Positions 3,112-31,180 are shown, numbered from the stretch's first letter. The stretch is 64,000 nucleotides of DNA from Burkholderiales bacterium (GCA_043744255.1 JAYTVA010000062.1:7843-71842), one strand, 5' to 3'. Made by a program: numbers and translations. Notes: a model not told the origin generated them from the sequence alone.

Positions 3112-3130
3112 CGTCATTCATTCGGCATCA

Positions 3131-3775: not shown

Positions 3776-3825
3776 GGCGTCCTCCTTATCGGGATGGTGG
3801 GTTGGGTTCGGTCGGGCATCGCGGC

Positions 3826-11376: not shown

Positions 11377-11377
11377 G

Positions 11378-12682
11378 ATGAAAAAAAGTTTAAAACCGAG
11401 CGGTGTGGACTGGATTGGGGATGTGCCGGTGGGGTGGGGTATTCGACGCGTAAAAGATATTGGAAAAGTGTCTGGGGGGGGAGTCGACAAGATTTATAGA
11501 AACGAAGACATTGAAACTTATATGGTGAATTATTTGGATGTATATAAGAGCAGATCAAAGCAAATTATCCCAGCAAAATCTTTAATGTTGACTACCGCAA
11601 CTCGCCATCAATTAAATTCAGCCTCGCTGAAAATAAATGATATTTTACTTACTCCATCTTCTGAAACTTCAGACGATATCGGCCATGCTGCGTGCATTAT
11701 TAAGGGCTACGAATTTAATTTGGTCTTCAGCTATCACTTGACGAGAATAAGGCCGCTCTCTTTTCATGTATTTCCATCTTATTTAGTCTACTTGATAAAT
11801 TCCCATGGCTGCAGAAACGTGTTGGCGAGCGTGTCAGGTGGGACCACTCGAAAAACACTTACACATGGCGATATCGAGCGATTATTGGTGGTTCTGCCCG
11901 AAGTCACCGAACAGATTGCCATCGCCGCCTACCTCGACAAAACCACGGCCGCCATCGACGAGCAAAAAGCCTTGCTCAAACGCAAGAAAGAGTTGCTCTT
12001 AGAACACAAGAAGGCGCTCATTCATAAAGCGGTGACCAAGGGGCTGGACGATAGCGTGCCAATGAAGGAAAGCGGCGTGGACTGGATTGGCGAGGTGCCG
12101 GTGGGGTGGGAGGTGGCCAGGGTTAAAGATTCGACAAAGTTAATCATGGGGCAATCTCCCGATAGTGAATTTGTTACAGATCAAATATTGCTTTTCGGAA
12201 TTCCATTTCTTCAAGGCTGCTCCGACTTTGGGAAATTGCATCCCAATCCAAATATGTTTTGCTCCAAATATGCTAAGTCCTCAAATGACGGAGATATACT
12301 TTTCTCTGTGAGGGCTCCTGTTGGTAAGACGAATATCTCAAATGGACAATATGTAATCGGGCGGGGGCTCTGTGCGTTAAGACCAAAAAGAACAACTACT
12401 AGTTTTCTAAATTGGATAGCTCAAAGTGTGATTGCGCCAAGCATGTCTGAAAAAGTGACTGGTAGCACGTTCGAGGCAGTGTCAATATCGGATATTAAGT
12501 CAGCTTTTATTCCCTTCCCGCTGCTTCCTGAGCAAATAGCAATTGCAGCTTACCTCGACATGGTGACAGCCGTCATTGATCAGCAGTGGGAGTTGATCGA
12601 TCAGAAGATTTATTTGTTGACTGATCTGCGTGCATCAGTCATTCATGAGGCGGTGACCAAAGGTATTCCAGCCGCTGCTTGA
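11378..12682 (+). CDS. hsdS: Type I R-M specificity subunit
   Basis: Two-fold internal architecture: SGVDWIG(D/E)VPVGW opens each half and PE..EQIAIAAYLD closes each half. Two A+T-rich target-recognition domains lie between them. Confidence 0.9.
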   Translation: MKKSLKPSGVDWIGDVPVGWGIRRVKDIGKVSGGGVDKIYRNEDIETYMVNYLDVYKSRSKQIIPAKSLMLTTATRHQLNSASLKINDILLTPSSETSDDIGHAACIIKGYEFNLVFSYHLTRIRPLSFHVFPSYLVYLINSHGCRNVLASVSGGTTRKTLTHGDIERLLVVLPEVTEQIAIAAYLDKTTAAIDEQKALLKRKKELLLEHKKALIHKAVTKGLDDSVPMKESGVDWIGEVPVGWEVARVKDSTKLIMGQSPDSEFVTDQILLFGIPFLQGCSDFGKLHPNPNMFCSKYAKSSNDGDILFSVRAPVGKTNISNGQYVIGRGLCALRPKRTTTSFLNWIAQSVIAPSMSEKVTGSTFEAVSISDIKSAFIPFPLLPEQIAIAAYLDMVTAVIDQQWELIDQKIYLLTDLRASVIHEAVTKGIPAAA

Positions 12683-12745
12683 AGCAGTAAATTTTTAAAC
12701 CATCGGGAAGACACCCGATAGAAAGGTATTGTTGGGAGAACATTG

Positions 12746-15700
12746 ATGGCTGTGAAAGGTGGATTTAGAGAGGCAGATTTTCAAGATGGGATTTTCGTTC
12801 CATTTTTGACATCAACACCCGACAGAGGACTCGTATGGATCAAGGGTGATCCGATGCGGATGTCGCAGAGAGATCGAGAGCGATGGATTTGCTCCGATGA
12901 TTTGTTGTATTTCCTGCGTGAAGGAAACGAAAATAATCGAAGTGCGTTCGAAGATTTGCTGAAGCAATACCCCGGCGAGTCCGATTTACTCGAGGACTTC
13001 GTTGCGCAAGCCTTGCTGCCCAAGCTTTCGTCTTCTACCAATGCCTCACGTGTGCTTCGTGAAACGATCGGATTTAAAGGGTATCAATTCACCCTTTGGA
13101 ATTCAGCGCCCAAGGCCGGTATGGCCCAATCATTGATCGACGATTTTTCGCGCAACCGCGGCCGACTTTTTACTGAGCTTAGCTTTGAGAGAACGTTTCC
13201 CAATGCTGGCAGCCGATTCAATCGGAGGCCTGACGCGACCTTTTTTGTCAACGGGCTCTACCTGGGCGCCGCTGAACTCAAAACGAATCAAACCGGCCAG
13301 TCTGCCGCCGTCAACGGGCGCAAAAAGATTGCCCATGACTTGGTAGAGCTCGCAGCCATGGCGTTGAGGGAGGCTAGATCACTTTGGACAAAATCGAGCG
13401 CGGCTCCATGGCCAGGTTATGCCAGTGACAGGTTGCCGGCTGCGGTTCGCAACAAGATCAACATGGACTGCGCGGTCTACCTCAAAGCCTGCCATGTCGT
13501 CTCTGTCGATATGGGGGCGTTGTTCATTACGGCCGATCTCGAGTGGGTGGTCCAAGAAGTTGACAGGGTGCTATCCGGTAAGAATGAAATTGTCGAGCTT
13601 AATCGTCTGCCTGAGCAAATTATCGGCAAGATCAGTCGAGCACCTGAAATCATGGGTATGACACCGTCAGAAACCATAGCGGAGCACTTGGAGAGCATCT
13701 ATTCACTTCGAGACGGTGTGGACCGCGATGCCTTTTACTTCAACCAAACATGGTCGCCAAATTCGAGCAACAAGCAAGTCGAGCCGTTGAAGCCACGCCC
13801 TGCGCAGCGCATGATGCTTCACCGCACCGTCAAGCGCGTTCGGGAGCTTTATCTTGACGAGAGCAAGCCTAAGATTTGCGAAGCGGACATCAGGCGCGAG
13901 CTTACAGACCTATCTCAGGGGCTCTCTGTCAAAGAAATTAACGAGATCGTCGAAGAAAGCATGAAATTCAAGAATGGAGCCAAGAGCCATTCTGTGTTGC
14001 TTCAAGGCGCGGCGGGTCTCGGCAAGACCTACCTGATCGTTTGGCTAGCACAAGCCCTCTATGAGATGGGCGACCTCAAAGCGCCGACCTACCCGTATCA
14101 GCCGCTGTTCGATTTGATCGTGCTTCTGACTGACCGCACGGAGCTTAGGCACAATATCGCCAAGGATGCAGCCAACCTCGGTTCCACCAGCAAGATCATC
14201 GAAGAGGCCGAGACGTTTGCCGACTTGCGACGCGTCGTCGAAGCAGGACAAAACCGCATCGTCGTGGTGAACATCCAGAAGTTTGCGTCACTGAGCAAGC
14301 TGGCCAATGACGACCCCAAGTTATCTGCTTTGCTAAAAAGCAAGCGCGTGGCGGTCATCATTGACGAGGTTCACCGTAGCCAAGGTGGGGTAATGCACGA
14401 CAACACGCTTGAACTATTTAATGACTGGAATAACCTAACTCCTAATAACAATAGGCGTAATTTAATCATTGGTTTGACGGCCACACCCAAAGGCGAGGCA
14501 CTCGCCAGCTTTGGCGAATGGCGCAGGCCCGTCGCCCCAGGCGACCGCTACCGCTGGGCTCCATTTGCGGCCTACTCGATGGCACAAGCCATCCGCGATG
14601 GGGTAGTTCTCAACCCGATCCAGAGCGTCTTCAAATACACCGATGAACTTGTGTTTGATCTTGGGCGGCTCCAGTCGGAGGTGGACGCGAAGGGTCTGGG
14701 CGCGAGCTCGATAAAAGCACCGAGCGCTGATTCAGTGTATGAAAATCCAACGAGGCAGAAGCTTGTCGCTGAAAAAATAGCGGGAGTGTTCGTGTCGAAG
14801 ACCATGATGGCTATCCGCCGACGCGGACTTCTTGTCGGTGAGGGCAAAGCCATGGTGGCATGTTCTTCGATCAAGGCTGCCATCGGTATGCAGGCCGCCA
14901 TCAAAGAGGCCATGCAGGCATTGGCGCTCGATCCTGGCTACAAGGACCGATCAGCCCACATCGCAGCCTGTCCAGTGCTGATCCTTTACAGCGACAAGCA
15001 AGGTGAGGTTTCCTGTGCTCAGCTCAACGGTGGAAAGGGCCAAACGGCGACCCTCGCTGAGTTTAGACGCGAGGGTGTCGAGGACAAGGACGAGGCAGGA
15101 AAGCTGCGCTGCCGCAACGCCATCATCGTCGTGGTGGACATGCTTCTCACGGGTTTTGACGAAAAGACGCTCCACACTTTGTTCATCGATCGAAGTCTTG
15201 ACGAAGTCGCTCTATTCCAAGCTGCATGCAGAATCAACCGCACGAACAAAAACAAAAGCGACTGCCTGGTCGTCGATTTTTCGCGCAACGGTGTCGTTTC
15301 CAAAGGCTTGCCAGGAGTATTCGCCGAATACGGCGGCCTAACTGTGTCTAATCTTGATGCAATGCATATGAACGAGAAGATGGATGCTGCATGGAGGGCA
15401 TTCTTTGGCGATAAGGACATCGGCGAACATTTCCGCACATGGAAAGCCACCATGTCGGGTGGCAAAGATCATCATGGCGCCGTCAAGCTTTCTGACTGGC
15501 TAGATCAACTCGTCACGGCTGACAAGTCGAGGGCATTGATGCTTAAAAAGGCTGCGTCAGCTTGGATTGGCTGTCGTGACAAGCTCACAGCTCTGCTTGA
15601 CTTTGATCGGCAGGGGCTCGAAAAGCATAAGGACAAGAGGCAAGTTTCGTTTGCCGAACAGGTGGTCAAGCACTTGGCGTCCAAGGGCAAGGCCGAAGGC

Positions 15701-16219
15701 GAGGATGTCGAGGTGTTTTTCGATGTGGTCCAGGTAGAGCAGACCGAGACTTTTGAGCTCGATGTGCACGGGGAATCTGGCAAGGATCAGAATCATCAAG
15801 GAACGCGGGAATCGTCAGCCTTGACTATGGGGCTTGCCATTTCGGACATTGAGTCATCCATCGAGATCATCGATATTCTGAACGTGCTTGGCCTTGAAGA
15901 AGCCAAGAAGGCTATGGCCATTCAGATGTTAAAAGACTTTGTCGATGGGCTCTTCGCCGAGATCGCTGCGTGTGGCGAAAAGAGCGATCGCGTTGGAAAT
16001 TCCGGTTTTTATCGTAAGGCCCTTGCCGCGTGGCTTGCCGGGAAGTCCGATTTCCCATGGGATGAGCGCCTAGCCGAATTCGTAAAGCTATTTAATAAGG
16101 CGAGGTCGAGCGCAAAGTTTGTTGGAAGCGACTTCGCCCGCATTGCGCTCCCAGCACTGTCTAAGCGCCCGGAGATGCTTATGGATGACTACGACCATTT
16201 TATCTCTAAACAAACTTGA
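12746..16219 (+). CDS. hsdR: Type I R-M endonuclease/translocase subunit
   Basis: N-terminal PD-(D/E)xK-like RPDATFFVNGLYLGAAELK. Helicase motif I QGAAGLGKT and motif II VIIDEVHRSQ. Downstream of hsdMS. Confidence 0.85.
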   Translation: MAVKGGFREADFQDGIFVPFLTSTPDRGLVWIKGDPMRMSQRDRERWICSDDLLYFLREGNENNRSAFEDLLKQYPGESDLLEDFVAQALLPKLSSSTNASRVLRETIGFKGYQFTLWNSAPKAGMAQSLIDDFSRNRGRLFTELSFERTFPNAGSRFNRRPDATFFVNGLYLGAAELKTNQTGQSAAVNGRKKIAHDLVELAAMALREARSLWTKSSAAPWPGYASDRLPAAVRNKINMDCAVYLKACHVVSVDMGALFITADLEWVVQEVDRVLSGKNEIVELNRLPEQIIGKISRAPEIMGMTPSETIAEHLESIYSLRDGVDRDAFYFNQTWSPNSSNKQVEPLKPRPAQRMMLHRTVKRVRELYLDESKPKICEADIRRELTDLSQGLSVKEINEIVEESMKFKNGAKSHSVLLQGAAGLGKTYLIVWLAQALYEMGDLKAPTYPYQPLFDLIVLLTDRTELRHNIAKDAANLGSTSKIIEEAETFADLRRVVEAGQNRIVVVNIQKFASLSKLANDDPKLSALLKSKRVAVIIDEVHRSQGGVMHDNTLELFNDWNNLTPNNNRRNLIIGLTATPKGEALASFGEWRRPVAPGDRYRWAPFAAYSMAQAIRDGVVLNPIQSVFKYTDELVFDLGRLQSEVDAKGLGASSIKAPSADSVYENPTRQKLVAEKIAGVFVSKTMMAIRRRGLLVGEGKAMVACSSIKAAIGMQAAIKEAMQALALDPGYKDRSAHIAACPVLILYSDKQGEVSCAQLNGGKGQTATLAEFRREGVEDKDEAGKLRCRNAIIVVVDMLLTGFDEKTLHTLFIDRSLDEVALFQAACRINRTNKNKSDCLVVDFSRNGVVSKGLPGVFAEYGGLTVSNLDAMHMNEKMDAAWRAFFGDKDIGEHFRTWKATMSGGKDHHGAVKLSDWLDQLVTADKSRALMLKKAASAWIGCRDKLTALLDFDRQGLEKHKDKRQVSFAEQVVKHLASKGKAEGEDVEVFFDVVQVEQTETFELDVHGESGKDQNHQGTRESSALTMGLAISDIESSIEIIDILNVLGLEEAKKAMAIQMLKDFVDGLFAEIAACGEKSDRVGNSGFYRKALAAWLAGKSDFPWDERLAEFVKLFNKARSSAKFVGSDFARIALPALSKRPEMLMDDYDHFISKQT

Positions 16220-16300
16220 TATGGGGACCTGTCATATGAGCGAAATGCTGCCGACCAATGGATTTGTTTGATTAAGGTCTTCTTGTTAAATTTTTCTGAA

Positions 16301-16825
16301 ATGGAGAGGATGATGGATAAAAAGCAATTGATACAAGTTATGGCGGCTATGTTGAATCAACTGGCAACGACCGGAGCATTCATTGGGCAGGAACCCTACA
16401 AGTCAGATTTATATCAATTATTTTTAATAGCAGCTAACCAAGATTTTGATATTGATTTTGGCTTGTCTAATATGCACGCCGACAAGTTGCTTGTTGATTT
16501 AATCGCTGAAGGAGTGCCAAATTCAGACGGCAATTTACAACTTGTTTGGGTGATGTGGGAAGAGTGGTCTTTTTGCTACCGCAAGAAGTCGCTGGTTCCA
16601 AGCGACGATGGAAAGGTAGTTGCTCACTTCGTATCATTAAACGATGGTAAGACGTTTGCTTTTGTTAGTGATGGATACCCAGCGACGGTTCGGATGTCCT
16701 TGCTTGGAATGAAGCCGTTAAATAGTAAGCCGGCGGTGCTTGAAGCTCCAAAATATAGTTTCCCACTGAATGGGCCGCTGACCTCTACTTTTTTCTATAA
16801 CGGATTTTTCTTTAAGGCGGACTAA
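16301..16825 (+). CDS. Hypothetical protein (A+T-rich orphan between hsdR and the WYL regulator)
   Basis: Uninterrupted ORF with protein-like composition (MDKKQLIQVMAAMLNQLATTGAFIG...). No motif recognised. Start uncertain (16268/16301/16310). Confidence 0.4.
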   Translation: MERMMDKKQLIQVMAAMLNQLATTGAFIGQEPYKSDLYQLFLIAANQDFDIDFGLSNMHADKLLVDLIAEGVPNSDGNLQLVWVMWEEWSFCYRKKSLVPSDDGKVVAHFVSLNDGKTFAFVSDGYPATVRMSLLGMKPLNSKPAVLEAPKYSFPLNGPLTSTFFYNGFFFKAD

Positions 16826-16900: not shown

Positions 16901-17866
16901 TTGCTTCGCCGACGGGCGGGAGGCCCGAGAAAGGGGCTTTTGGCCAGCACATTGGATGTTTCGCAGAACCAGCGCGAGCGACTCGCGTTTTTGGAGCTGC
17001 GCGCGTTCTTCACAGGTGAGCTTCGCAGGGGAGACATCGAGGCGCGGTTCGGCATCAAGCCAGCAGCGGCGTCCCGCGACCTGAGTCTGTATAGGGAAGT
17101 CGCGCCCCACAACCTCGACTACGACCAGGCCTCGCGCTGCTACCGGCCGAGCTCCTCCTTCAAGCCCTTCAATGAATTTCACCCTGAGCGCGTGCTCGCG
17201 TGGTTCTTGCAAGGCTTTGGCGATGGGCTAGACCTTGGTTTGAAGCAAGCGGCACCGTGCGAAGGTCCCGGCCAACTCGTGCGGCCCGACATGGAGGTGC
17301 TAGGCGCCATCACCCGATCCATGTGTGCGAAGAAGGCTCTTCGCGTGAGTTATCTGTCGCTGTCGTCAGGTCCAAAGAATCGTGAGATCGTGCCTGTGGC
17401 GTTAGCCGACAACGGGCTGCGTTGGCATGTGCGCTCTTTTGATCGCGAACGCGGGCGGTTCAATGACTTCGTCTTGACTCGCATTGCGAAGGCTCATGAG
17501 ATAGAGGGAGACGTGGCCGAAACCGAGCTGCTAACTGCCGACGAGCAGTGGGCGCGGATGGTGGACATGGAGCTGGTGGCTCACCCTGGCATCAAGCAGC
17601 CCAAGGCGGTCGAGGCAGATTACGGATTGACCGAGGGCGTCTTGAAGGTCAAAGCGCGCGCGGCTCTTGCGGGTTACGTGCTCCGGCGCTGGTCAGTCGA
17701 TTCAAGCCTGCATCACAGACTTGATCCATCCTCACATCACCTTTGGCTGCGCAACCCTCAGGCGCTCTATGGCGTCGAAAGTGCCGCTTTGGCGCCAGGC
17801 TTTGAGGCCGACATTGCCGCGACTGCCTACGCGGCCGGAAGTAATAAATCAGGGGACAAAAAATGA
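16901..17866 (+). CDS. WYL-domain transcriptional regulator (BrxR/CapW-like)
   Basis: N-terminal wHTH-like [44 protein letters not shown] core [32 protein letters not shown]. The stop overlaps the helicase ATG (ATGA at 17863-17866). The start is TTG, or possibly internal. Confidence 0.75.
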
Positions 17867-20800
17867 AACTCGAATCCATCGCCAAAGGAGCGTTGGTCTC
17901 TGGCATTGAGGAGGGACGAGTCGTCCGAGTGGTGAGTGCCGACCCCTTGGGTGATAACGCTGTCACTGTCGTCTACAAGGCTGATGATGGCCGCTTAGGC
18001 GAGCGTGTGCTCTTTCGCTCCAACGAGTCTGAGCTAAGCATCGCGTCGATTGGGCGTCCTTGGAGCTTTGACGCGGACGGCGCGGACTTCAAGCTCGCTG
18101 CCGAGGCATATCGGATCAACCTCGCCCACTTGTTTGATCCGATGATGGCGGTCCACACGTCCAACGTGGAGCCCCTCCCGCACCAGATCACCGCTGTCTA
18201 TGAGTCCATGCTGCCAAGGCAGCCACTTCGTTATGTGCTGGCCGACGATCCGGGAGCAGGCAAGACCATCATGGCGGGCTTGCTGATTCGCGAGCTGCTA
18301 ATGCGGGCAGACGCCCAGCGCATCTTGATCGTGTCGCCGGGGAGCTTGGTGGAGCAGTGGCAGGATGAAATGTTCGAAAAGTTCGGGCTGTCCTTCTCGC
18401 TGTTCAGCCGCGATCTCATGGATCAAAGCCGCAGCGGAAACGCATTCGACGACCACAACTTGCTCGTGGCCCGGCTCGATCAACTCTCCCGCAGCGAAGA
18501 GCTTCAAGAAAAAATTCGCAATTCGCACTGGGACTTGATCGTGGTTGACGAAGCCCACAAGCTTTCGGCCACTTGGTATGGCACCAAGATCAATGAGACC
18601 AAGCGCTTTAAGCTAGGCCAGTTATTGGGCTCGGTCACGCGCCACTTCCTGCTGATGACGGCTACGCCGCACAACGGCAAGGAAGAAGACTTCCAGCTCT
18701 TCATGTCGCTGCTGGACTCGGACCGCTTCTACGGAAAATTCCGCGATGGCGCTCACAAGGTCGATGTCACGGACCTCATGCGGCGCATGGTCAAGGAAGA
18801 CCTTTTGAAGTTTGACGGCACCCGTCTCTTCCCTGAGCGTAGGGCCTACACCGCGAACTACAAGCTGTCGGAGGCCGAGGCTCAGCTCTACAACGACGTG
18901 ACGACCTACGTCAAAGAAGAGATGAACCGGGCCGACAAACTCGACGGCAAGCGCAAGCGAACCGTCGGCTTTGCGTTGACGGCATTGCAGCGCCGATTGG
19001 CCTCAAGCCCCGAGGCGATCTACCAATCGTTAAAGCGTCGGCGCGAGAAGTTGAAGCGCCGCATCGAGGAAGAGAAGGTCAAGCAGCGTGGCGGTGGCAT
19101 GTCCATGGCAGAAACCTATGCCACAAAAGCATCCGAGGACATTTGGGACTCTGCTGACGACATGGCTCCGGAGGACTACGAGGAATTCGAGGAGGAGGTC
19201 GTCGATCAAGCCACCGCAGCCCAGACCATCGCTGAGCTCGAAGCCGAAGTTTTTACTCTTGGGCACCTCGAAGAGCAGGCCAAGACCTTGGTCCATTCGG
19301 GGCAGGATCGCAAGTGGGAGGAGCTGCGCGAGCTCTTGCAGAACACGCCGGAGATGCGCGGACCCGATGGCTTGCAGCGCAAGCTGATTATTTTCACCGA
19401 GCACCGCGACACGCTCAACTATTTGGCTGACCGCATTCGTGGGCTGATGGGCAAGTTCGAGGCTGTGGTGATGATCCATGGCGGCGTGCACCGCGAGGAC
19501 CGTCGCAAGGTTCAGGAGCTGTTCCGCAACGACAAGGATACCCGCGTCTTGCTGGCCACCGATGCGGCGGGCGAAGGCGTGAATTTGCAGAACGCCCACC
19601 TGATGGTGAACTACGACTTGCCATGGAACCCAAACCGCTTGGAGCAGCGCTTCGGCCGCATCCACCGCATCGGCCAGACCCAGGTTTGCCATTTGTGGAA
19701 CATGGTTGCCGCCGAGACCCGCGAAGGCGACGTGTTCCAAAAGCTTTTCGACAAGATCGAAATCGAGCGCAAGGCGTTGGGTGGACGCGTGTTCGACATC
19801 TTGGGCGAGGTTTTCGATGGCATTAGCTTGCGCGACTTGCTGATCGAGGCGATCCGCTACGGAGAGGACCCTGCGCGCAAAGAACACTTGCGCGAAGTCG
19901 TCGGCACGGCCATGGAAACCGAAAAGTTGCGCGAGATCATCAGCCGCAACGCCTTGGCCGAAGAGGTGATGGACGAGCGCCGTCTCTTCGCGCTCAAGGA
20001 GGAGATGGAGAAGGCAGAAGCCCGCAAGCTCCAACCTTATTTCATTCGGTCTTTTTTCGCCCAGGCCTTCGAGAGACTCGGTGGCGACTTGCGCCCGCGT
20101 GGCTCGGGCCGCTATGAGATCAGCTTTGTGCCCGCCACGATTCGCGAGCGCGACCGCCAGATTTCCGGCCGTGACCGGCGCAGCATGAATCCCGTGGTGA
20201 CGAAATACGAACGTGTCTGTTTTGAAAAGAACAAGGTCCGCGTCGATGAAAAGCCCAACGAGGCCGTCGCGAGCCTGATCCACCCGGCCCATCCCCTGAT
20301 GCAGTCGGTGGTGGATTTGATGACCGAGCAGCACCGCGGCAAGTTGAAGCAGGGCGCCGTCTTGGTGGACCCCAATGACGAGGGAATTGATCCGAAGCTT
20401 TTGTTCCTGATTGACCACTCCGTCAAGGAAGGCGGCGAATCTGGCTTGGTTGTATCGCGCCGCTTGCAGTTCGTCACCATCGACCGGCACGGCCAAATCA
20501 GCAATGCAGGTTGGGCGCCTCACTTGGACCTCAATCCCATAGAGCCTGATCAGCGCGCGGTGGTGGCCGCAGAGATTGATGCCGACTGGATCAACAAGGA
20601 CTTGGAAGAAGCTGCCTTGTGGCACTCGTCGGACAAGCTGGTGCCCGAGCACTTCGAGGAAGTCCGCGAGAGGCGCGAACACCAGATCGACAAGAACCTC
20701 GCAGCGATTCACGAGCGGCTGGTCAAGGAGATCGACTACTGGTCAGACCGTTACGACAAGCTCAAGACCGACCTGTCTGCGGGCAAGGATGTCCGCCTGC

Positions 20801-21384
20801 CGTTGGAAAACGTCAGGCGCACGATTGACGAGCTGACCGTCCGGCTCGAAACGCGCACCAAGAGCCTGCAAGGCATGCGGCATGTGGTCTCTGGCATGCC
20901 GGTGGTGGTTGGCGGCGCATTGGTGATACCCGCAGGTCTGATCGCGATGAAAAGAGGCGAAGCCGAAGGCCCAACGTGGTCTGCCGATGCCCAAGCCCGC
21001 GCCCGTGTCGAGCGGGTCGCCATGGCTGCCGTTCGCAAAGCCGAAGAGGCTAGGGGGCACCAGATCATCGACGTGTCCGCTGAGAAGTGCGGTTGGGACT
21101 TGACTGCCATTGTTCCCGTCGATGAAGGCAAGCTTCCGCAAGCCCGCCACATTGAAGTCAAGGGGCGATCAAAAGGCCAATCGACCATCACCGTCACCCG
21201 CAACGAAATTCTCTACGGACTCAACCAAGCCGATAAGTTCATCTTGGCCATTGTGATCGTCGATGGTGACGACCATGAAGGCCCCCATTACGTTCGCAAC
21301 CCATTCACGCAAGAGCCTGATTGGGCGGTGACCAGTATCAATTTGGACCTCGCGTCCTTGCTCGACAGGGCGGAATCAATATGA
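17863..21384 (+). CDS. SNF2/DEAD-like superfamily 2 helicase with a C-terminal DUF3883-type (restriction-endonuclease-like) domain
   Basis: Motifs [24 protein letters not shown] and [11 protein letters not shown]. The C-terminal CGWDLTA...HIEVKGRS...[22 protein letters not shown] resembles DUF3883. Confidence 0.85.
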
Positions 21385-24236
21385 CACCAATAAAAACACC
21401 GAAGAAACTGATCGAAGTGGCGTTGCCATTGGACGATATAAACGTAGCTGCCGGCCGTGAAAAATCAATAAGATTCGGGCATCCATCGACTCTACATTTA
21501 TGGTGGGCTAGGCGGCCATTAGCCGCAGCAAGAGCAGTGATCTTTGCTCAAATGGTGAACGATCCAGGATATGAGCGAAACCTCGGAAGAGGTGTCAATA
21601 AAGAGAAGGCAAAAGTTGAGCGCGAGCGATTATTCGAGATCATTCGCAAGCTTGTGATTTGGGAAAACACTAACAACGTAGCGTTATTTAAGGAAGCGCA
21701 CGAAGAAATCCGTAAGAGTTGGGTTGAAACTTGCGAATTAAACAAAAATCATCCACTCGCTACTGATCTATTCAATCCAGCAAAAATTCCGGGCCTCCAC
21801 GATCCGTTCGCCGGAGGGGGGTCTATACCTTTGGAAGCCCAGAGGCTTGGGCTGGAAAGCCATGCGTCTGACTTAAACCCTGTTGCAGTTTTGATCAATA
21901 AGGCAATGATTGAAATTCCTCCTAGATTTAACGGGCGAGTGCCAGTAGGTCCGATCCCTAGCGCAGAAAAGCAATCCAAAATAGAACAGGAGTGGTCTGG
22001 AGCTAAAGGGCTAGCAGAAGACGTAGTTCGTTATGGGGCTTGGATGCGAGAAGCAGTCTATGACCGAATTGGTCACTTTTATCCGACCATAAAGTTACCG
22101 AAAAAATATGGCGGAGGCGACGCGACAGTTATCGCGTGGCTATGGGCCAGAACCGTTAAGAGTCCTAACCCTGCTTTTTCTCACGTAGATGTCCCACTCT
22201 CGTCTTCATTTATTTTGTCGAAAAAAGCTGGGAAGGAGATTTATCTTTGTCCAGTAATCAACAATGATAAATATCATTTCGAAGTAATTTCCGGTATCCC
22301 CCCGCTGAGTGCCAGTAGTGGGACGAAGCTGGCGCGCGGCGCGAACTTTCGGTGCCTACTTTCAAATTCACCTATCGAACCGAAATACATCAAGTCGGAA
22401 GGCGTCGCTGGTCGTATGGGTGCCCGACTAATGGCCGTCGTAGCAGAAAGCACCTCTGGCAGGGTTTACGTTGAAGCTAATCAAGAGATGGAGTCGATTG
22501 CCTTAGCCGCAAAGCCCGAATGGAAGCCTGAAACCAAATTGGCAGATGACCCAAGAGCTCTTTGGACGCCAGCATACGGTTTGACTACCTTTGGCGATTT
22601 GTTTACTTCACGTCAGCTTCTGACTCTGACGACCTTCTCGGACATGATCCAAGTCGTGCGGACAAAAGTAAAAGAAGACGCTCTCAGCGCGAGCTGGGTT
22701 GGGGACGATCGAGGCTTAGCGGCAGGAGGTTCCGGTGCGTCGGCATATTCTGACGCTATCGCAGTTTACCTAGGAATTGCTGTCGATAAAACGACTGATT
22801 ACAACAGCAGTCTGGTTGCGTGGAGTCCAACTAGAGATCAATTAAAGACAACTTTCTCACGTCAAGGTTTACCCATGATTTGGGACTATGCAGAGACAAA
22901 TCCGTTTGCCAATGCTGCGGGAGATTTGAATATTTCGGCCCAAGGCATTGCAAGATCAATGCTTGGTCTTCCTGCAACAGGAGTTGCGTTTGTATCTCAG
23001 GTAAACGCCCAAGCTCAAAATATATCAAGTGGGAAAGTAATTTCAACAGACCCACCGTATTACGACAACATTGGCTACGCGGATCTTTCGGATTTTTTTT
23101 ATGTATGGCTTAGGAAGGCGTTACGACCGATTTACCCGGATTTATTTTCAACGATGGCGGTTCCGAAGGTGGAGGAGTTGGTTGCAACTCCTTATCGCCA
23201 CGGAAGTAAGGCCGAAGCTGAAGCTTTCTTTTTGAGCGGTATGACTGAAGCCATGCATCGACTTGCTGAACAGGCTAACCCTTCGTATCCCGCGACAATT
23301 TACTATGCATTCAAGCAGTCGGACACCACGGATGTGGGAACCGGAAATACTGGTTGGGAAACGTTTCTTGAGGCAGTTTTGCGAGCAGGCTTCTCCATTA
23401 CTGGGACGTGGCCGATGAGAACAGAGCGCGACGCTCGCTCAATAGGTATCGGAACAAATGCATTAGCGTCGAGCATTATTCTTGTCTGTCGCCAAAGGTC
23501 TCTGGATGCCCCTACTGCTTCAAGGCGCGACTTTCTCCGTGAGTTAAGAGATGAATTGGCCGATGCTGTGGAAGTAATGATCGGAGGTGCTGAAGGTGTT
23601 TCCCCCGTGGCACCCGTTGATCTCGCTCAAGCGGTTATAGGCCCAGGCATGGCGATTTTCTCGAAGTATTCCTCTGTATTAGAGGCTGATGGCAGTCATA
23701 TGACAGTTCACACGGCCTTGATGCTGATTAATCGAATGTTGACCGACGGCGTCGACGAATTTGATGCGAATACTCAATTTTGTCTAAGCTGGTTCGATGA
23801 GCAAGGTTGGGCTTCTGGTGAGTTTGGTAAAGCGGATGTCCTTGCAAGAGCAAAGGGAACCTCTGTTGACGGAGTAAGGGAGTCGGGCGTAGTTGAGGCA
23901 GGTGCTGGTCGCGTTCGCTTGTTGAAGCCTATCGACTATTCGGATGATTGGTCACCTGGGCGAGACAACACCACGCCTGTCTGGGAGGCCCTGCATCAGT
24001 TAATCCGAGCACTTCGAGACCAAGGAGAGTCGGCATCTGGTTCGTTGTTGGCCGGGATGCCGCAAATTGCTGAGCCCATTCGAAATCTGGCTTACCGCCT
24101 GTATACGCTCTGCGAGCGCAAGGGATGGGCCGACGATGCGCGAGCCTACAACGAGTTGATCACATCATGGACTGGGATCGAGGCTGCTTCGCATGAGAAG
24201 GGCCATCTCGGCTCGCAGGCCAAGTTCGATATTTAG
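21381..24236 (+). CDS. DUF1156-family DNA methyltransferase (COG1743-like)
   Basis: The N-terminal [12 protein letters not shown]...[21 protein letters not shown] is the DUF1156 signature. AdoMet motif DPFAGGGS and catalytic [21 protein letters not shown]. The ATG overlaps the helicase stop (ATGA 21381-21384). Confidence 0.85.
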
Positions 24237-24248: not shown

Positions 24249-27146
24249 ATGGCACTCAAACCTTGGCGCGAAATCGCCGTTCCCCACGAAGATGTCTTGA
24301 AGGGCACCTTCCAGCAAGCCGAGTTCGCCGCTGACATCTCTAAGGTGCACCAGGGAATCGCGACGCCTGAGTATCAGGATGCGGCTCTGTTTTTCCAACG
24401 GACCTTCATCACCGAAGGCATGCGCCTCTTGCTCGACTCGGTCGTCAAACGGCTCGCGGGCAAGGGAGGTGATCCCGTCGTGCAATTGCAAACAGCCTTC
24501 GGTGGCGGCAAGACCCACACACTTCTTGCTGTCTATCACCTTGCCAAGGGATTGACGCCTGCTAGCAAGATGCAGGGCATCCCGCCGATCTTGGAAGCGG
24601 CGGGCATCACAGAACTTCCGAAGGCTCGCGTGGCGGTGCTTGATGGAGTGGACTTGTTGGACCTTGCGAGCAAGCCCCGTGTTCATGGCAAGACCACCGT
24701 CAAGACGATTTGGGGAGAGTTGGCTTGGCAGTTGGGTGGCGAGGCGGCTTTCGCCAAGCTGATGGAGGCTGACCGTGATGGCACGGCTCCCGGCAAGAGC
24801 GTGATGGCCGACATCATCGGTGGCAGCGCGCCTTGCATCATCTTGATGGACGAGCTTGTTCGCTACGTCTCGCAGTTCGAAGAGGGTAAAACCTTGTCGG
24901 GCGGCACCTACGACACCCAGCTCTCATTCATCCAGTCGCTCACCGAAGCCTTGAAGGCCGTGCCCAACGCGATCCTGCTGGCCTCGCTGCCGTTCTCGGA
25001 CAGGGAAGCTGGCAGCCAGCAAGGCGTGAAGGCTTTAAGGGCCTTAGAGCACTACTTCGGGCGGGTGCAGGCGTTGTGGAAGCCCGTAGCGACCGAAGAA
25101 GCGTTCGAGATCGTCCGCAGGCGGCTGTTTGCCGATGTCACGGACCGACTCGCAGCCGAAGAAGTCTGCCGAGCGTATGCCGACTACTACGCGGCGAATG
25201 CGGGCGACCTACCCCCTGAGGCGCAGGGAAGCGGCTACTTGGATCGGTTGAAGCACGCTTACCCAATCCACCCCGAAGTTTTCGACCGGCTCTATGAGGA
25301 CTGGTCGTCGCTGGACAACTTCCAGCGCACGCGCGGCGTCTTGAAGCTCATGGCCAAAGTTATCCATCGCCTTTGGACCACGGGCAACAACGATTTATTG
25401 ATTCAGCCGGGCAGCCTGCCCTTGTTCGATTCCGACACACGTAACGAGGCGATCTACTACCTGCCTCAGGGTTGGGACCCGGTGCTAGAACGCGACATTG
25501 ATGGCGATCGAGCGGCGACCACTGAGCTCGATAACGCACGCCCACTGTTCGGCTCGATCCACGCATGCCGCCGTATTGCGCGGGCGGTGTTCTTAGGCTC
25601 GGCCCCAGACGCGGGAGCCGTTGGAGGTGCGAAACATCATCGAGGCATCGAGCTGGAACGCGTTCTCTTGGGATGCGTTCAGCCTGGCCAAGTGATTGGG
25701 CACTACAAGGATGGCGTGCGGGCCTTGGTGGACCGACTTCAATACCTCAACAGTGCTAACAACCGCTTTTGGTTTGACACCCGGCCTAACCTACGACGCG
25801 AGATGGAGGACCGTAAGCGCCGCTTTGATCTGCGCGAAGACGTGTATCCCTTCATCAAGGAAAAGCTGCGGTTTGCCAACGGCACCTTTGGTGGTGTGCA
25901 TGTGTTTACGCCATCGTCGGACGTGCCGGATGACTGGCAATTACGCCTCGTGGTGTTGCCGCCCGAGGCCACGTTCAGCAAGGGCGCGCAGTCGCCCGCA
26001 ATTGAGGCGGCCACCGCGATCCTGAAAGGGCGGGGAGATCAGCCTCGCCAGAAGCAAAACCGTTTGATCTTCTTGGCTCCAGACACCGACAGCATCTCGC
26101 GCCTCAAAGACCAAGTGACCTCCTCGCTTGCATGGAAGTCCATCGTCGATGACGTGAAGGAAGGTCGGCTTAACCTCGATGGACACCAGACCAAGCAGGC
26201 ATCGGCCAGCCTCGACCAAGCAAGCGAAGCACTGGGCCGCATGGTGCGCGAGACCTTCAAGTGGCTTTTGGCCCCATTGCAGGAGGCCAAGCCCGGCAAG
26301 GGTATCGGCGAGATTCAGTGGGACCACTTCCAGATCAATCCTGCTTCGGTGAACCGCACCGAAGAAATAGAGAAGGTGCTCAAAGAGCACGAGCTGCTGA
26401 TCACCGAGTGGGCCCCGATCCACTTGACCAAGATGCTGCAAACGTGGTTTTGGAAGGACGACGCGACTGCTGTCAGCGCGTTGGAGACGTGGCAAAAGAC
26501 GTGCTGCTACCTCTACCTGCCGAGGCTTCGCGATGCCGACACACTGCGGGCCACCATCGCGGCGGGCGTATCTTCACGCGACTTCTTCGGCATTGCTTAT
26601 GGCCGCGAAGAGGGCCCATTTCAAGGTTTCAATTTCGCGCAGAGCACTACCCCCATCCTTGACGACTCGCTTCTACTGATCGAGCCCAAGGTTTCGGTAG
26701 CGTTCGCCGCCGAGCTTGCGGCGGAGGCGGCAGAGAGAGAGGCTCAGACCAAGAATAAGGAAACGGGCGGAGCCAGCGCGGGTGGCGGCTCTAACGGCGA
26801 AACCTCAGGCGGGACTTCGACCACTACAACTGGCACCGGCGGCGGCTCCATGGGCTCCACAAGCGGGGGGGCGACGGGCGCTGGATCGAGCCCCGGCACG
26901 GGTAGCGGCGCCACAAAGAAAACGATGTTCTTCGGCTCCGTGGAGTTGAACCCGAATCAGGCCAAGGTGCAGTTTTCCGACGTGGCCGAGGAAGTTCTCA
27001 TGCTTCTCAATAAGCCCGGCGTGAAGCTGCGCATCGCCATCGAGATCGAGGCGGAGCTGCCAAGTGGATTTGACGATGGCATACAGCGCGCTGTGCGCGA
27101 GAACTGCGATCAGTTGAAGTTCAAGAACCGATCGTTCGAAGACTGA
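24249..27146 (+). CDS. DUF499-family P-loop ATPase (BrxC/PglY-like, COG1483-like)
   Basis: Walker [17 protein letters not shown] and Walker [11 protein letters not shown] long helical body is followed by a G/S/T-rich linker and a roughly 75-aa C-terminal domain. RBS gggag lies 12 nt after the MTase stop. Confidence 0.85.
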
Positions 27147-27155: not shown

Positions 27156-27503
27156 ATGAGCAAGATCATTGTTCCGGCTCTGCCGACTGCGCGGGAGATG
27201 GAAGAGCTCCTGCAGTCGCTTATCAACGACCAGGAGAGCAATTTTTCGGACGCGCTCGACCACGACGTCTCGCATATCGACCAGCGAGCTCAGGTCGATT
27301 CGGTCCGAATAACCGATGTCGATATCTCTGGTTCACAGATTGCGGTGACTTACGAGCTGGATTACAGCATCTACAACGGCTGTAAGGATATGAATGTCGA
27401 AGATGCTGAGGAACTGCATGTCTTCGGCGAGATGACTGACGAGGGCTGGGCGTTCAATGAACACGTCCCCCCGCCAAAGCGCAGCACTGTGGACGAGTTC
27501 TGA
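27156..27503 (+). CDS. Small acidic hypothetical protein (about 115 aa)
   Basis: Starts 10 nt after the DUF499 stop, on the same strand. Protein-like sequence (..VRITDVDISGSQIAVTYELDYSIYNGCKDMNVEDAEELHVFGEM..). No motif recognised. Confidence 0.5.
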   Translation: MSKIIVPALPTAREMEELLQSLINDQESNFSDALDHDVSHIDQRAQVDSVRITDVDISGSQIAVTYELDYSIYNGCKDMNVEDAEELHVFGEMTDEGWAFNEHVPPPKRSTVDEF

Positions 27504-27562
27504 GAAATTTTGCAGTGATATTAGTTTTTGAATCAAAAGCACATCAATAAGAGGAGGTTGTC

Positions 27563-29530
27563 ATGAAGCTCACAAAAGTCCGCGTCCAGAACTATCGGTC
27601 CGTAGAAGACAGCGAAGAATTTGAGATTGACGGCCTCACTTGCCTAGTTGGCAAGAACGAAGCCGGAAAGACAGCGCTCCTCAGTGCCATACGCGGCCTC
27701 AAGCCAGCCCAGCCGTTCGAATTCGACGAAGTTATCGATTACCCAAGGCGTTTTTCGACACGGTTCGACGACCGACACCCTGGCGGGTCAGCAGAGGTTA
27801 TTCGGACGTGGTGGCGACTTGAAGGTCCGGACAATGATGCGGTTGAAAAGCGCTTTGGCCCAGGGGTTCTCAAAGGCGATACCTTTCAGACCCACTTTGG
27901 ATTTAGGTATGACGACGACCGCCGCATCTGGGAAATTGAAATCGATAGCGGAAAAGTTCTGGAAAATATGCTGAGCAAGCATGCCCTCGACGCAACCGAA
28001 CGCAATGCCCTTCACGGCGTGAGCGATGGGCTTGCTGCGGACAAGGCCCTTTCGGGGCTGACCGCGCGAACGCCCAAGCAGGAACTCCTCTTGCAGGATA
28101 TTAAAAAGTGCAGGGAATCGAGCTTCGTCAAGGCAGTGCTCGACATCCTATCTGCAAGGCAACCCAAGTTCTTTTTCACGTCGCACTTCGAGCGCATGTC
28201 GGGCATGGTCTCGATTGAGAAATTGCAGCTAGATAGACAGCAAAACGCGGTTTCGGTTGGGGACAAAATTTTTCTCGATTTCCTCGAATACGCGGGAACC
28301 ACTCTTGAAGACTTGAAGAACGTGGACCGACGCGAGGAGCTCAAGGCCAAATGCGAGGCGGCAAGTAACGAAATAACTGAGGAAATCTTCCAGTTTTGGA
28401 GCCAGAACAATGCATTAGAAGTAGTTATCGAGATCGATAACGCTAAACCCAAAGACCCCGTTCCTTTCAATACCGGCATGGTGGCCGACATACGGATTAA
28501 GAACACCAATCACAAGGCTACGCTTCCGTTGTCGGAGCGCAGCGCGGGCTTTGTATGGTTCTTCTCGTTTCTTGCTCAGTTCAAGCAGCTAAAGAAAACA
28601 CCCGGAAATACCAACGCGATCATTTTGCTGGATGAGCCTGGCCTAACCTTGCATGGAAAGGCGCAAGGCGATTTGCTGCGCTATATCGTCGAGCGGCTGC
28701 TGCCTGACCATCAAGTGATCTTCACCACGCATTCGCCATTTATGGTGCCTATGGATCGGCTCGCCGATGTCCGCATCGTGGAGGACGTAATTATTGAGAA
28801 GCCTGGCCAGCGCACAGAGGTCAAAGGAACGAAGGTGCGTTCGGACGTTCTTGAGGTTAGCGACGACACGCTTTTCCCTCTCCAAGGCGCGCTAGGCTAT
28901 GAAGTGACACAGTCACTTTTTATCGGCGCGAACACATGGCTTGTCGAAGGACCGTCGGACATTCTTTATTTGAAAGTCGTCTCCCAAGCGCTCACTAAGC
29001 GAAGCCGAGTAGGCATTGATCCGAAATGGACGTTATGCCCATCGGGCGGCATCGATAAGCTCGCGCCATTCGTGAGGCTTTTTGGCGGCAATCGTATCAA
29101 TATGGCGGTGCTCTCAGACATTGCGAACGGTGACAAGAATAAGATTGAAAATTTGAAGAAGGCCGACATATTAAAAGCGGGGCACTTCTATACGTGCGCG
29201 GATTTCACTGCGCAGAGTGAAGCGGATGTCGAAGATCTCTTCGAGGCCGACCTGTTCGTCGAGATGCTCAATGGGGCATACAAGCCGCCTGTTGCCAATG
29301 TCGTGGTCAAGGAAGCTTTGATGGTTGCGGCTCCCACCCCGCGTATCGTCAAGAAGGCGGAGGCATTGTTCAAAATGATGCCTGCGTCTGTCGCTGAGTT
29401 CGATCACTTCGGAGCATCTCGTTGGCTTTTGGAAAATCCGTCACTTTTAGATGCCGACACGCCTGCCGTCAATGCAACTCTGGACCGGTTTGAGCAGATT
29501 TTCAAGGCATTCAATCAACTGTTGGGATAA
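27563..29530 (+). CDS. OLD-family-like ABC-type ATPase fused to a TOPRIM-like C-terminal domain
   Basis: VRVQNYRSVEDSEEFEIDGLTCLVGKNEAGKT (Walker A), LSERSAGFVWFFSF (signature-like), AIILLDEPGLTLH (Walker B) and FTTHSPFM (H-loop). These are followed by WLVEGPSDILYL and AVLSDIANGD, a TOPRIM-like Glu and acidic cluster. Strong RBS aagaggagg. Confidence 0.7.
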   Translation: MKLTKVRVQNYRSVEDSEEFEIDGLTCLVGKNEAGKTALLSAIRGLKPAQPFEFDEVIDYPRRFSTRFDDRHPGGSAEVIRTWWRLEGPDNDAVEKRFGPGVLKGDTFQTHFGFRYDDDRRIWEIEIDSGKVLENMLSKHALDATERNALHGVSDGLAADKALSGLTARTPKQELLLQDIKKCRESSFVKAVLDILSARQPKFFFTSHFERMSGMVSIEKLQLDRQQNAVSVGDKIFLDFLEYAGTTLEDLKNVDRREELKAKCEAASNEITEEIFQFWSQNNALEVVIEIDNAKPKDPVPFNTGMVADIRIKNTNHKATLPLSERSAGFVWFFSFLAQFKQLKKTPGNTNAIILLDEPGLTLHGKAQGDLLRYIVERLLPDHQVIFTTHSPFMVPMDRLADVRIVEDVIIEKPGQRTEVKGTKVRSDVLEVSDDTLFPLQGALGYEVTQSLFIGANTWLVEGPSDILYLKVVSQALTKRSRVGIDPKWTLCPSGGIDKLAPFVRLFGGNRINMAVLSDIANGDKNKIENLKKADILKAGHFYTCADFTAQSEADVEDLFEADLFVEMLNGAYKPPVANVVVKEALMVAAPTPRIVKKAEALFKMMPASVAEFDHFGASRWLLENPSLLDADTPAVNATLDRFEQIFKAFNQLLG

Positions 29531-29538
29531 CGGTTTTC

Positions 29539-30414
29539 ATGAAGAATCCAACAATGATGATGAAGCAGATAGAAGCCTTCCGCATTAGCCTGAGCGACGA
29601 TGAAGTTGTTTCGTCCCAGATGTTTTTGACCGAAGCGAACAAGAGCGAAATCTTTGACGATGACGAAAGGTGGGGCTTGGCTTGCGAGCATGCCGTCGCG
29701 ATGGCCTTGAAGACGGGTTGGGCTCAGGAATACGTTGAACGGCTTGCAAAGCTCAGGGACAAGCCTAGCGAGCTTGAAAAGGTGGCCTGCGCTTACATGC
29801 AAGAACAAGTTTTCGGGGCGGCTATCGCGCTCAAACTGTTGGGTATAAATTTTCTAGACATGCCGTTGCTGGCCGAGGCTGTAAGCTTTGATGGACGGAC
29901 TAGGCACGGCGAGTCCCTCGATTTTGGGTTGATCCGGTTCCTAGTTTGGGGTGGGGCCGACATCAATCGAAGGCATGTGGGCGGTATGACTGCCCTTCAC
30001 CTTCTGGCAGCGACCAAACGAAAACCATATTCCGATCCGACGGGCGTGCGCTGGCTTCTTGAACACGGTGCCGACCCAAGTGCAACAAACTACCGCAGGG
30101 AGACCGCGCTGTCTTACCTGTGTAGAGACAGTGAGACATGGAACGATGAGGAGGGCACCAGTTTCGTCTACCTCGTGCAGGCGGGAGCTGATCCATTCCA
30201 TGTTTCCATGGGTGACACGCCATACAGCATGCTCAAAGCTATCGCGGCGAGGGAGGCCAATGCTCATGCCTTCGCTCTCATCGCCTACATGGAAAAACAC
30301 GAACAAGCGATCCGTGCGGACACGCAAAGACGTGCGGCCGAAAAATCGATTGACAGGCAGCAACACTCATTGCCGATGAAGGCGAAGGCTAAGAGGGGCG
30401 ATTCATCCCATTGA
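29539..30414 (+). CDS. Ankyrin-repeat protein
   Basis: Three ANK-like units: GGADINRRHVGGMTALHLLA, LLEHGADPSATNYRRETALSYL and LVQAGADPFHVSMGDTPYSML. Starts 8 nt after the OLD-like gene. Confidence 0.75.
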   Translation: MKNPTMMMKQIEAFRISLSDDEVVSSQMFLTEANKSEIFDDDERWGLACEHAVAMALKTGWAQEYVERLAKLRDKPSELEKVACAYMQEQVFGAAIALKLLGINFLDMPLLAEAVSFDGRTRHGESLDFGLIRFLVWGGADINRRHVGGMTALHLLAATKRKPYSDPTGVRWLLEHGADPSATNYRRETALSYLCRDSETWNDEEGTSFVYLVQAGADPFHVSMGDTPYSMLKAIAAREANAHAFALIAYMEKHEQAIRADTQRRAAEKSIDRQQHSLPMKAKAKRGDSSH

Positions 30415-30494: not shown

Positions 30495-31019
30495 TCACGG
30501 TTTGTTGGCTTGCACAGTTTGCGATGCCGGCATGAGCTCTGCGCGGATCGCTGCGGCGTCCGGTTTTGCTTTGGACTGCCAGCGGACCGTCTTGTATCCC
30601 GCGCTGGCCAGCATCGCGTCGCGTTTGGCGTCCTTGTCGGCTTTGTGCGTTCGGTCGTCGAGCTCGATGATGGCGACCACGGCGCCTGTCTTGCGATCCT
30701 GAGCGACAAAGTCCACGAACTTTTGAGCGAACATGCCGCGCAGCCTCATGTAGGCCTTGCCTTCGCTTCTGGGCACATCGGGATCGAGGATCGACCCCAT
30801 GGCGACCTGAGGGCAAATCCGAAACTCGGGGACTGCGGCCTCAAGGCGGCCGAGGAATTCGAGTTCGTTAGGGGTCAGCAGTGGCTTGGCCTTGAACCGA
30901 TCTTTTGAGGTCTCCGAACCTGCGCCCGATGCGGCCAGCTTGGCTTTGAGCACCACCAATCCAACGGCGACAACTCCGACGATCGCCGCGATCAATACTA
31001 GGTTCGAAGTCGCGCTCAT
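30495..31019 (-). CDS. DUF2726-domain protein (membrane-anchored, endonuclease-fold-like)
   Basis: N-terminal TM helix NLVLIAAIVGVVAVGLVVL, then LTPNELEFLGRLEAAVPEFRICPQV...FVDFVAQDRKTGAVVAIIELDDRTH...RDAMLASAGYKTVRW, typical of DUF2726. RBS aaagga precedes ATG 31019. Confidence 0.75.
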   Translation of the reverse strand: MSATSNLVLIAAIVGVVAVGLVVLKAKLAASGAGSETSKDRFKAKPLLTPNELEFLGRLEAAVPEFRICPQVAMGSILDPDVPRSEGKAYMRLRGMFAQKFVDFVAQDRKTGAVVAIIELDDRTHKADKDAKRDAMLASAGYKTVRWQSKAKPDAAAIRAELMPASQTVQANKP

Positions 31020-31180
31020 GAATATCCTTTGTGTTGTTTTGTCCAAGCGCGGCCTGGAATCCGTTCAGGCCAGAGTAATTTACTGATTTTATGTGTCGGT
31101 GTCATCTTTTAGGCGCTCCAACGTAGCTACTGTTGCGAGCTTCATATTGTTTCGCGTGCTGATTTTGAGTTGACGACAGA

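Follow-up and report, generated by a model that had tools for sequence, protein, structure and literature searches.

Three genes at the end of a BrxR-HmaABC operon: a single-gene OLD cassette in a probable mosaic of separately inherited genes

The phenotypes described for Class 1 OLD proteins are those of P2 Old, which is abortive and linked to RecBCD, of Vc OLD, a nickase that stops ICP1 from replicating and acts like an abortive-infection system, and of E. coli YbjD. OLD-ABC/TOPRIM genes also occur in or beside BREX and DUF499-centred systems (Hma, Type-1 BR) in at least 1242 taxa, where they have been interpreted as auxiliary or backup suicide effectors (PMC12839542, NAR 2026); dependence of OLD on the upstream system was put forward in that work as a proposal. 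Here we describe such a gene in a 64,000-nucleotide (nt) stretch of DNA from a Burkholderiales bacterium (GCA_043744255.1, JAYTVA010000062.1:7843-71842; the whole stretch is referred to as the window, or W), where the HmaC (DUF499) gene is followed by a small open reading frame (ORF), a gene for an OLD-like protein of 655 amino acids (aa), and a gene for an ankyrin-repeat (ANK) protein. A previous sequence-only reading took this trio for one unrecognised module. The comparisons reported below argue otherwise: the small gene tracks DUF499, the ANK gene tracks the island, and OLD is autonomous. Three genes with separate histories of inheritance thus probably make up the region from 27.1 to 30.4 kb as a mosaic; it lies at the 3' end of a BrxR-HmaABC operon, within the defence cargo of an integrative mobilisable island beside suhB.

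All three genes lie on the + strand, and the coordinates and gaps (9, 59 and 8 nt behind the DUF499 gene) given by the sequence-only reading were confirmed. The best start of the small ORF is the ATG at 27156, 9 nt after HmaC, which gives a protein of 115 aa ending at 27503. The 59-nt gap that follows holds a strong ribosome-binding site, AAGAGGAGG, ahead of the 655-aa OLD ORF (27563-29530); the 291-aa ankyrin ORF (29539-30414) begins after a further 8 nt and, given this spacing, probably shares a transcript with OLD. In a comparison with the near-identical sister locus L082 (L-numbers denote the homologous loci compared), the ratio of non-synonymous to synonymous substitution rates (dN/dS) is 0.11 for the small gene, 0.10 for OLD and 0.24 for ANK: because purifying selection is evident in each, all three are considered genuine genes and not chance ORFs. 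None of the three proteins scores above the cutoffs of NCBIfam. Promoter and terminator scans of 26.9-31.3 kb gave no excess over shuffled controls, and no Rfam family (at threshold) or tRNA was detected anywhere in the window.

The neighbourhoods of OLD relatives bear directly on whether OLD has a partner. A genome scan returned 501 relatives, from which 80 species-level loci at 43-90% identity were kept. Clustering of all ORFs within 6 kb of OLD in these 80 loci shows that only OLD itself is common to more than 11 of them. The neighbours that recur are HsdM, HsdS, DUF6079 (BrxC), an Mrr_cat nuclease, KilA-N and a Schlafen/Fic-like protein; Zorya and Hma are also seen, the latter upstream of OLD in only two of the 80 loci (L001 and L025). 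In 37 of 74 loci, or half, OLD has no co-directional neighbour within 150 nt on its downstream side, and the 36 co-directional genes scanned within that distance (the window's included) represent 29 Pfam families, each present in two genes at most. Ank domains occur in two of the 36, in the window and in L018, and a profile hidden Markov model (HMM) of the ANK family finds a match beside just one of the 80 other OLD loci, again L018. The ANK protein is not a conserved partner of OLD, an outcome that the sequence-only reading had itself named as refuting its module. The same survey upholds the earlier observation that the partner is neither the UvrD helicase of Gabija nor the DUF4435 protein of PARIS: neither is adjacent, and no UvrD-like helicase and no DUF4435 is present among the 36 downstream genes. 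Nor is there a reverse transcriptase near the window's OLD or a retron RNA (the flanks are DUF499, the small gene, ANK and DUF2726), and the NCBIfam model retron_eff_Eco8 scores 39 bits on OLD where the cutoff is 250. Copies of OLD that are 82-90% identical to the window's have unrelated surroundings, upstream DNA included, and the closest relatives (84-90% identical) are without ANK. Because no partner is conserved across the 80 loci, OLD conforms to the Class 1 (single-gene) pattern by published definitions: it is a self-contained single-gene cassette of the Class 1 type.

A recombinant origin of the window's OLD, with a 3' end of the L018 type, was considered and rejected: the gene falls in the subclade of L001, L003 and L093 over its whole length. 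Separately, an Mrr_cat gene of the same size (~290 aa) follows OLD in L021, L025 (11968-12861) and L038.

The ANK protein matches Pfam Ank over residues 149-184 (4.4e-7; 30.3 bits, cutoff 21.1), Ank_2 over residues 130-197, and Ank_4 (27.2 bits, cutoff 22.7). By eye, two full and two partial repeats follow an N-terminal helical region; "about three" is therefore a fair count, in line with the three repeats first proposed. The AlphaFold2 (AF2) model, built on a two-sequence alignment, has a predicted local distance difference test (pLDDT) score of 45 and is too poor for repeat counting. The repeats lie as follows.

29914-30243, + strand: ankyrin repeats, residues ~126-235 (Ank, Ank_2; TALH and GADxN motifs readable)

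A word-based search with this protein recovers only the sister copy (92% identical) and generic ankyrins. An exhaustive HMMER search of 1.84 billion representatives yields about 15 clusters with the full architecture in common, at 25-33% identity to the window protein, with proteins of 255 to 747 aa and C-terminal tails that vary; plasmid, phage and viral-contig collections contain no relatives. PADLOC gives a weak match to the defence candidate PDC-M72A. The genomic contexts inspected are six.

Window lineage: Hma, small gene, OLD, ANK, then DUF2726
Acidovorax soli L018: ZorB, ZorC, ZorD, OLD, ANK (700 aa), then SNase and SRAP
L083/84: Hma, small gene, 161-aa gene, 334-aa gene, ANK, 235-aa gene, then SNase, SRAP and umuDC; no OLD
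L106/107: TrwC, ArdC, ANK, Type ISP enzyme; no OLD
L108/109: SNase, SRAP, umuC, umuD, then ANK, and further on Dcm and suhB-trmJ-cysE; no OLD
L105: ANK beside AAA_13 and an integrase; no OLD upstream

Thus the family occurs without OLD in four of the six contexts, and one of these, L108/109, shares with the window its chromosomal site at suhB. The ANK proteins linked to OLD (window and L018) are only 32% identical and are not mutual nearest relatives: that of L018 is 51-56% identical to members whose contexts are unknown or free of OLD. The OLD proteins of these two loci likewise belong to different subclades, most members of which have no ANK. Since W and L018 share further genes of the right arm – DUF2726 and a 162-aa ORF – the adjacency of OLD and ANK can be put down to OLD cassettes that arrived at one and the same edge of the hotspot. 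On the simplest account, they did so at least twice, just upstream of a hotspot-flanking ANK gene. Judged from these comparisons, ANK looks like a gene of the island that evolves fast and borders the cargo region, not like a dedicated subunit of OLD.

Homologues of the small protein number 47 (63-100% identity), and a metagenome scan with its profile gave only seven loci. Its gene starts 2-15 nt past the preceding stop in every locus inspected: behind DUF499 in W, L001, L082, L083 and L085-L099, and behind a BrxH-like helicase in L100-102. The gene that comes next differs between lineages. OLD follows in seven lineages (W/L082/L103, L001, L086/87, L088, L089, L090 and L092/93); an Mrr_cat nuclease, alone or together with an HATPase_c_3 protein, follows in four (L085, L095, L096-98 and L099); the 161-aa, 334-aa (PDC-M48B/metallo-beta-lactamase-like), ANK and 235-aa genes follow in one (L083/84); and in one (L100-102) nothing follows, the small gene there ending a BREX-like operon. 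The L025 locus has Hma and OLD with no small gene, and distant plasmid-borne Hma operons have neither small gene nor OLD. From this distribution we infer that the small gene goes with Hma and not with OLD, as a lineage-specific terminal (fourth) gene of a beta-proteobacterial Hma clade. The idea that it encodes an OLD-specific antitoxin was rejected, as the gene occurs with other cargo and OLD occurs mostly without it. The protein is very acidic (isoelectric point 4.1), and its AF2 model (pLDDT 85) has an alpha+beta fold with a curved sheet. A Foldseek search of this model (PDB, BFVD) returned only weak NTF2-like and miscellaneous matches (E>=0.008; template-modelling score <=0.46), so that any fold assignment is tentative. 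The protein ends in a tail, VPPPKRxTVDEF, that shows hardly any variation and is poorly ordered in the model; with its acidic residues and terminal Phe this tail resembles a docking peptide.

Some of the arrangements around the small gene deserve a description of their own. The cargo behind Hma and the small gene in L083 (10420-13809; also L084) encodes the proteins of 161 aa, 334 aa, the ANK family and 235 aa; the 334-aa protein matches PDC-M48B at 5.5e-39, with weak metallo-beta-lactamase similarity, and this alternative cargo may be an uncharacterised defence cassette. The ~290-aa Mrr_cat nuclease, sometimes followed by an HATPase_c_3 protein of ~665 aa, recurs behind Hma and the small gene (L085, 10360-13251; L099, 10372-13250). 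In L005 (~3817-3993) and L006 (~4790-4907), all that is left of a small gene just upstream of OLD is its 3' end, and no Hma is nearby; the probable origin of these OLD copies is excision from an Hma-small-OLD arrangement.

The 655-aa protein had been read as having the OLD layout (Walker A and B, H-loop, TOPRIM), and HMM classification agrees. Pfam gives AAA_15 (6.6e-25) together with AAA_21 and AAA_23; the PADLOC matches are Old (1.1e-23, across residues 336-519), AriA (4.4e-26, the best match, covering the ATPase part only, residues 250-395) and GajA (2e-16). The window protein itself matches Pfam OLD-like_TOPRIM (PF20469) under threshold (E=0.012, residues 460-519); the domain is matched by all 22 of 22 diverse family members at E<=0.1, the best at 5e-8. 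In an alignment of 22 relatives (45-78% identity), the following features were located.

27650-27673, + strand: Walker A, GKNEAGKT (OLD residues 30-37), invariant in the 22-sequence alignment
28625-28738, + strand: Walker B, LLDEPG (355-360), to H-loop, TTHSP (388-392), aligned to P2 Old and Ts OLD
28925-29242, + strand: TOPRIM core, residues ~455-560, with E462, D466, D519, D555, E557 and D558 (PF20469, alignments)

Walker A, Walker B and the H-loop are all invariant across the family, and the latter two align with FIDEPE and STHS of P2 Old. In the TOPRIM part, which carries the motifs LVEGPSD (460-466) and EADVED (553-558), residues E462, D519, D555, E557 and D558 are invariant and D466 is at least 90% conserved. 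The closest solved structure is the Class 1 OLD of Thermus scotoductus (Ts OLD, 6p74): LVEGPSD aligns on its LLVEGYGD, which places E462 and D466 on E377 and D381 – the metal-A Glu and metal-B Asp of Ts OLD (PMC7049728) – and the spacing of D519, D555, E557 and D558 resembles that of D431 and S478/E480. An hhalign comparison with phage P2 Old (97.4% probability) places E462 and D466 on E398 and E402, with Walker B and the H-loop also aligned. On this evidence from sequence the protein is an OLD-family ABC ATPase fused to a TOPRIM domain, and a predicted nuclease. Its homologues number in the thousands, with more than 120 clusters at >=83% identity in hosts that include Sorangium, Nitrotoga, Sulfuritalea and Burkholderiaceae; many members of the clade are more than 80% identical across phyla.

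A mechanism compatible with the mosaic can be outlined by analogy. The small protein would probably dock to the Hma or BREX machinery by way of its conserved C-terminal tail. By the example of P2 Old, Ts OLD and Vc OLD, the ABC-ATPase domain of OLD, as a dimer, would control activation in an ATP-dependent manner, and the TOPRIM domain would nick or degrade DNA by two-metal catalysis. Family knowledge suggests that the outcome would be protection of the abortive-infection type, or a second line of protection, alongside Hma. OLD would need no dedicated partner: dropped behind many restriction-modification (R-M)-like systems, it may be a second-line "backup" effector. ANK is presumably a protein binder, possibly one serving establishment of the element or anti-defence.

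Several observations weigh against the mosaic. The 8-nt gap suggests a single transcript for OLD and ANK; their adjacency recurs behind two different systems, Hma in the window and Zorya in L018; GC content at third codon positions (GC3) is alike in OLD (0.61) and ANK (0.62) and distinct from that of HmaA and HmaC; the dN/dS of 0.24, being evidence of purifying selection, means that ANK does something; and the contexts inspected represent six settings only among the ~15 clusters of the ANK family. Where OLD itself is concerned, the canonical TOPRIM DxD is conserved only in its first Asp (the window has D519-I-A), and a sequence search of PDB with the C-terminal region alone gave no match even at E<=10, for which reasons nuclease competence can be put no higher than a prediction. 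The first three of these also favour a genuine two-gene system of OLD and the ankyrin protein – in effect a new OLD class – in which ANK would sense a phage protein or restrain the nuclease, and so does the greater divergence of ANK compared with its neighbours (92% against 97-99% identity), as expected at an arms-race interface. However, ANK stands beside OLD in only two lineages of ~85 OLD contexts, the nearest OLD relatives do without it, the family has members in OLD-free settings (L083, L105, L106/107, L108/109), the two OLD-linked proteins are more distant from one another than the L018 protein is from members outside such pairs, and the edge genes common to W and L018 can account for the adjacency. 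We regard such a system as decidedly unlikely. Quite improbable, too, is a version in which ANK was recruited as phage-protein sensor or antitoxin-like brake in the window lineage and in Acidovorax soli, which if true would be a previously undescribed two-gene defence unit, and/or in which the small protein serves as an adaptor that brings accessory nucleases (OLD, Mrr-type) to Hma or BREX.

A different grouping would make the small gene and OLD, with or without ANK, an effector arm dependent on Hma, the DUF499/helicase complex recruiting or licensing OLD through the small protein as adaptor. OLD follows the small gene in seven of the 13 small-gene lineages inspected, the spacer between the two is conserved, and small-gene 3' remnants travel with OLD in L005 and L006; moreover, synonymous divergence (dS) from L082 is lower for small gene and OLD (0.10-0.13) than for HmaA and HmaC (0.27-0.32), as if the former were one recombination block. 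The notion of an accessory arm, raised by the sequence-only reading as an alternative, also fits the published pattern, OLD-ABC/TOPRIM proteins having been proposed to act as effectors that back up BREX and DUF499 systems (PMC12839542). Yet most OLD homologues, even at 82-90% identity, have no Hma and no small gene near them, L025 has Hma and OLD alone, the small gene is without OLD in six lineages (among them the BREX-like operon end with nothing after it), and more distant Hma operons have neither: that part of the alternative which makes the arm dependent on Hma is unlikely. As for ANK, it could be an element-borne anti-defence or establishment factor, like ArdC in L106, and unrelated to any host protection by OLD. 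In L106 it comes straight after the TrwC relaxase and ArdC, in L018, L083 and L108 it adjoins the umuDC-SRAP-SNase backbone, and it evolves fast, with variable tails (255 to 747 aa). Against this, phage, plasmid and viral-contig collections hold no homologue, the protein resembles no known anti-defence protein, its weak PADLOC match is to a defence candidate, and its position in the window, at the cargo end and far from ArdC, equally fits being cargo; we think this role rather unlikely. The mosaic of three separately inherited genes thus stays the reading we prefer.

The operon to which the three genes are appended is of the Hma type. PADLOC matches to HmaA, HmaB and HmaC are full length, and the combination of SNF2, DUF1156 and DUF499 proteins that defines Hma/Type-1 BR is present; the small, OLD and ANK genes fall outside that definition.

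16901-17866, + strand: WYL/BrxR-type regulator, head of the Hma operon (PADLOC WYL, 1e-14)
17863-21384, + strand: HmaA, SNF2 helicase with C-terminal nuclease domain (PADLOC HmaA, E=0, residues 1-1171)
21381-24236, + strand: HmaB, DUF1156 N6-adenine methyltransferase (PADLOC HmaB, E=0)
24249-27146, + strand: HmaC, DUF499 ATPase (PADLOC HmaC, E=0)

The counterparts in L082 have the domains WHD_BrxR, WYL and BrxR_CTD (regulator) and SNF2-rel_dom, Helicase_C and NOV_C (HmaA). Within the operon HmaB stands apart: it is only 55-69% identical among loci (L001, L082, L083, L085-L099) in which HmaA and HmaC are 80-99% identical, and its GC3 is 0.46 as against 0.73-0.76. This methylase/specificity gene appears to have been swapped as a cassette in an otherwise conserved operon.

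Positions 1-33700 of the window are a genomic island inserted beside the suhB/trmJ/isc genes; chromosomal housekeeping genes (suhB, trmJ-like, iscRS, hscBA) begin at 33761. The arms and the first cargo are these.

1004-2686, + strand: integrase, left arm (Pfam)
3131-4222, - strand: S24 repressor-like gene, left arm (Pfam)
4616-6949, + strand: type IV coupling protein, left arm (Pfam)
7721-8749, + strand: ArdC, left arm (Pfam)
8983-16219: type I R-M, first defence cargo straight after ArdC, followed by Hma
30495-31046, - strand: DUF2726 (PD-(D/E)XK-like) gene, convergent, right arm (Pfam DUF2726, 5.1e-16)

The order after the cargo (type I R-M, BrxR-Hma, OLD) is ANK, DUF2726 and a PIN toxin pair. 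Homologues of the DUF2726 gene are present in L018 (58%) and in L082 (95%), the right arm being common to both. A comparison of the island's left end with 30.4-33.8 kb showed no att direct repeat; exact matches were at most 13 nt long. L082 and L108 have different islands at the same chromosomal site. In L106 an ANK-family gene lies directly behind ArdC (8803-10861), and in the window ArdC and ANK bracket ~21 kb of cargo: this suggests that the ArdC-ANK interval is a defined cargo hotspot in these integrative elements; the interval in L106 resembles an empty version. The type I R-M system of the window has an unusually long HsdM (797 aa) and an HsdR-like protein of 1158 aa. Between the HsdR-like gene and BrxR is a 185-aa ORF (16268-16825) of very low GC content (0.41), for which Pfam, NCBIfam and PADLOC gave no match.

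The practical lesson is that genes packed closely behind a defence operon, in a hotspot of a mobile island, do not for that reason form a system; a false lead was averted here. What emerges is a widespread and conserved Class 1-type OLD clade that moves as a single-gene cassette to the tails of Hma, BREX, type I R-M and Zorya systems, a mobility that supports the published "backup effector" picture. Since Class 1 OLD proteins are little understood as yet, with phenotypes only for P2 Old, Vc OLD and YbjD, this abundant clade is a reasonable experimental target. Beside it stand the acidic 115-aa protein, uncharacterised and a consistent terminal gene of one Hma clade, and an ANK gene family that marks the cargo border in islands inserting at suhB.

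Comparison with described systems places the window's OLD as follows. The arrangement of PMC12839542 – OLD-ABC/TOPRIM in or beside a DUF499/DUF1156/SNF2 operon – is shared, and the clade is found here beside DUF6079 (BrxC) and type I R-M as well; that paper (main text and text supplement) mentions no ankyrin partner, and the 115-aa terminal gene is not among its Type-1 BR components. A further insertion into an Hma operon was seen in L112 (Rhizobium rhizogenes pC6.5e, 3097-5074), where the insert between HmaA and HmaB encodes an AAA ATPase resembling PtuA and an HNH endonuclease of the retron type: this is another OLD-ABC-type dyad embedded in such an operon. GajA of Gabija (Class 2 OLD) has the same ATPase and TOPRIM layout, but its models match more weakly (2e-16) than Old, and where Gabija has a helicase resembling UvrD, PcrA or Rep the window has the ankyrin gene; the downstream genes scanned likewise hold no such helicase. 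AriA of PARIS (Class 4) resembles the ATPase half of the window's OLD, but the TOPRIM of PARIS is on a separate DUF4435 protein, AriB, whereas here it is fused and no DUF4435 is adjacent. The reverse transcriptase and msr/msd non-coding RNA that distinguish Class 3 OLD, the retron effectors, are absent from the window locus.

The closest relatives are the Class 1 proteins (P2 Old, Ts OLD 6P74 and Vc OLD), with which the window's OLD shares the metal-binding Glu and an acidic residue four positions on, and, like which, it has no conserved neighbour gene; Ts OLD is the best solved match. It differs from them in being longer (655 aa, compared with 528 for Ts OLD and 586 for P2 Old), in its very low identity outside the ATPase core, in having the DxD cut to D519, and in its residence in defence islands beside R-M-like systems, Class 1 genes having first been described as lying away from defence genes. 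To judge from these likenesses and differences in sequence, the window's OLD is a divergent and very abundant new member of the Class 1 type.

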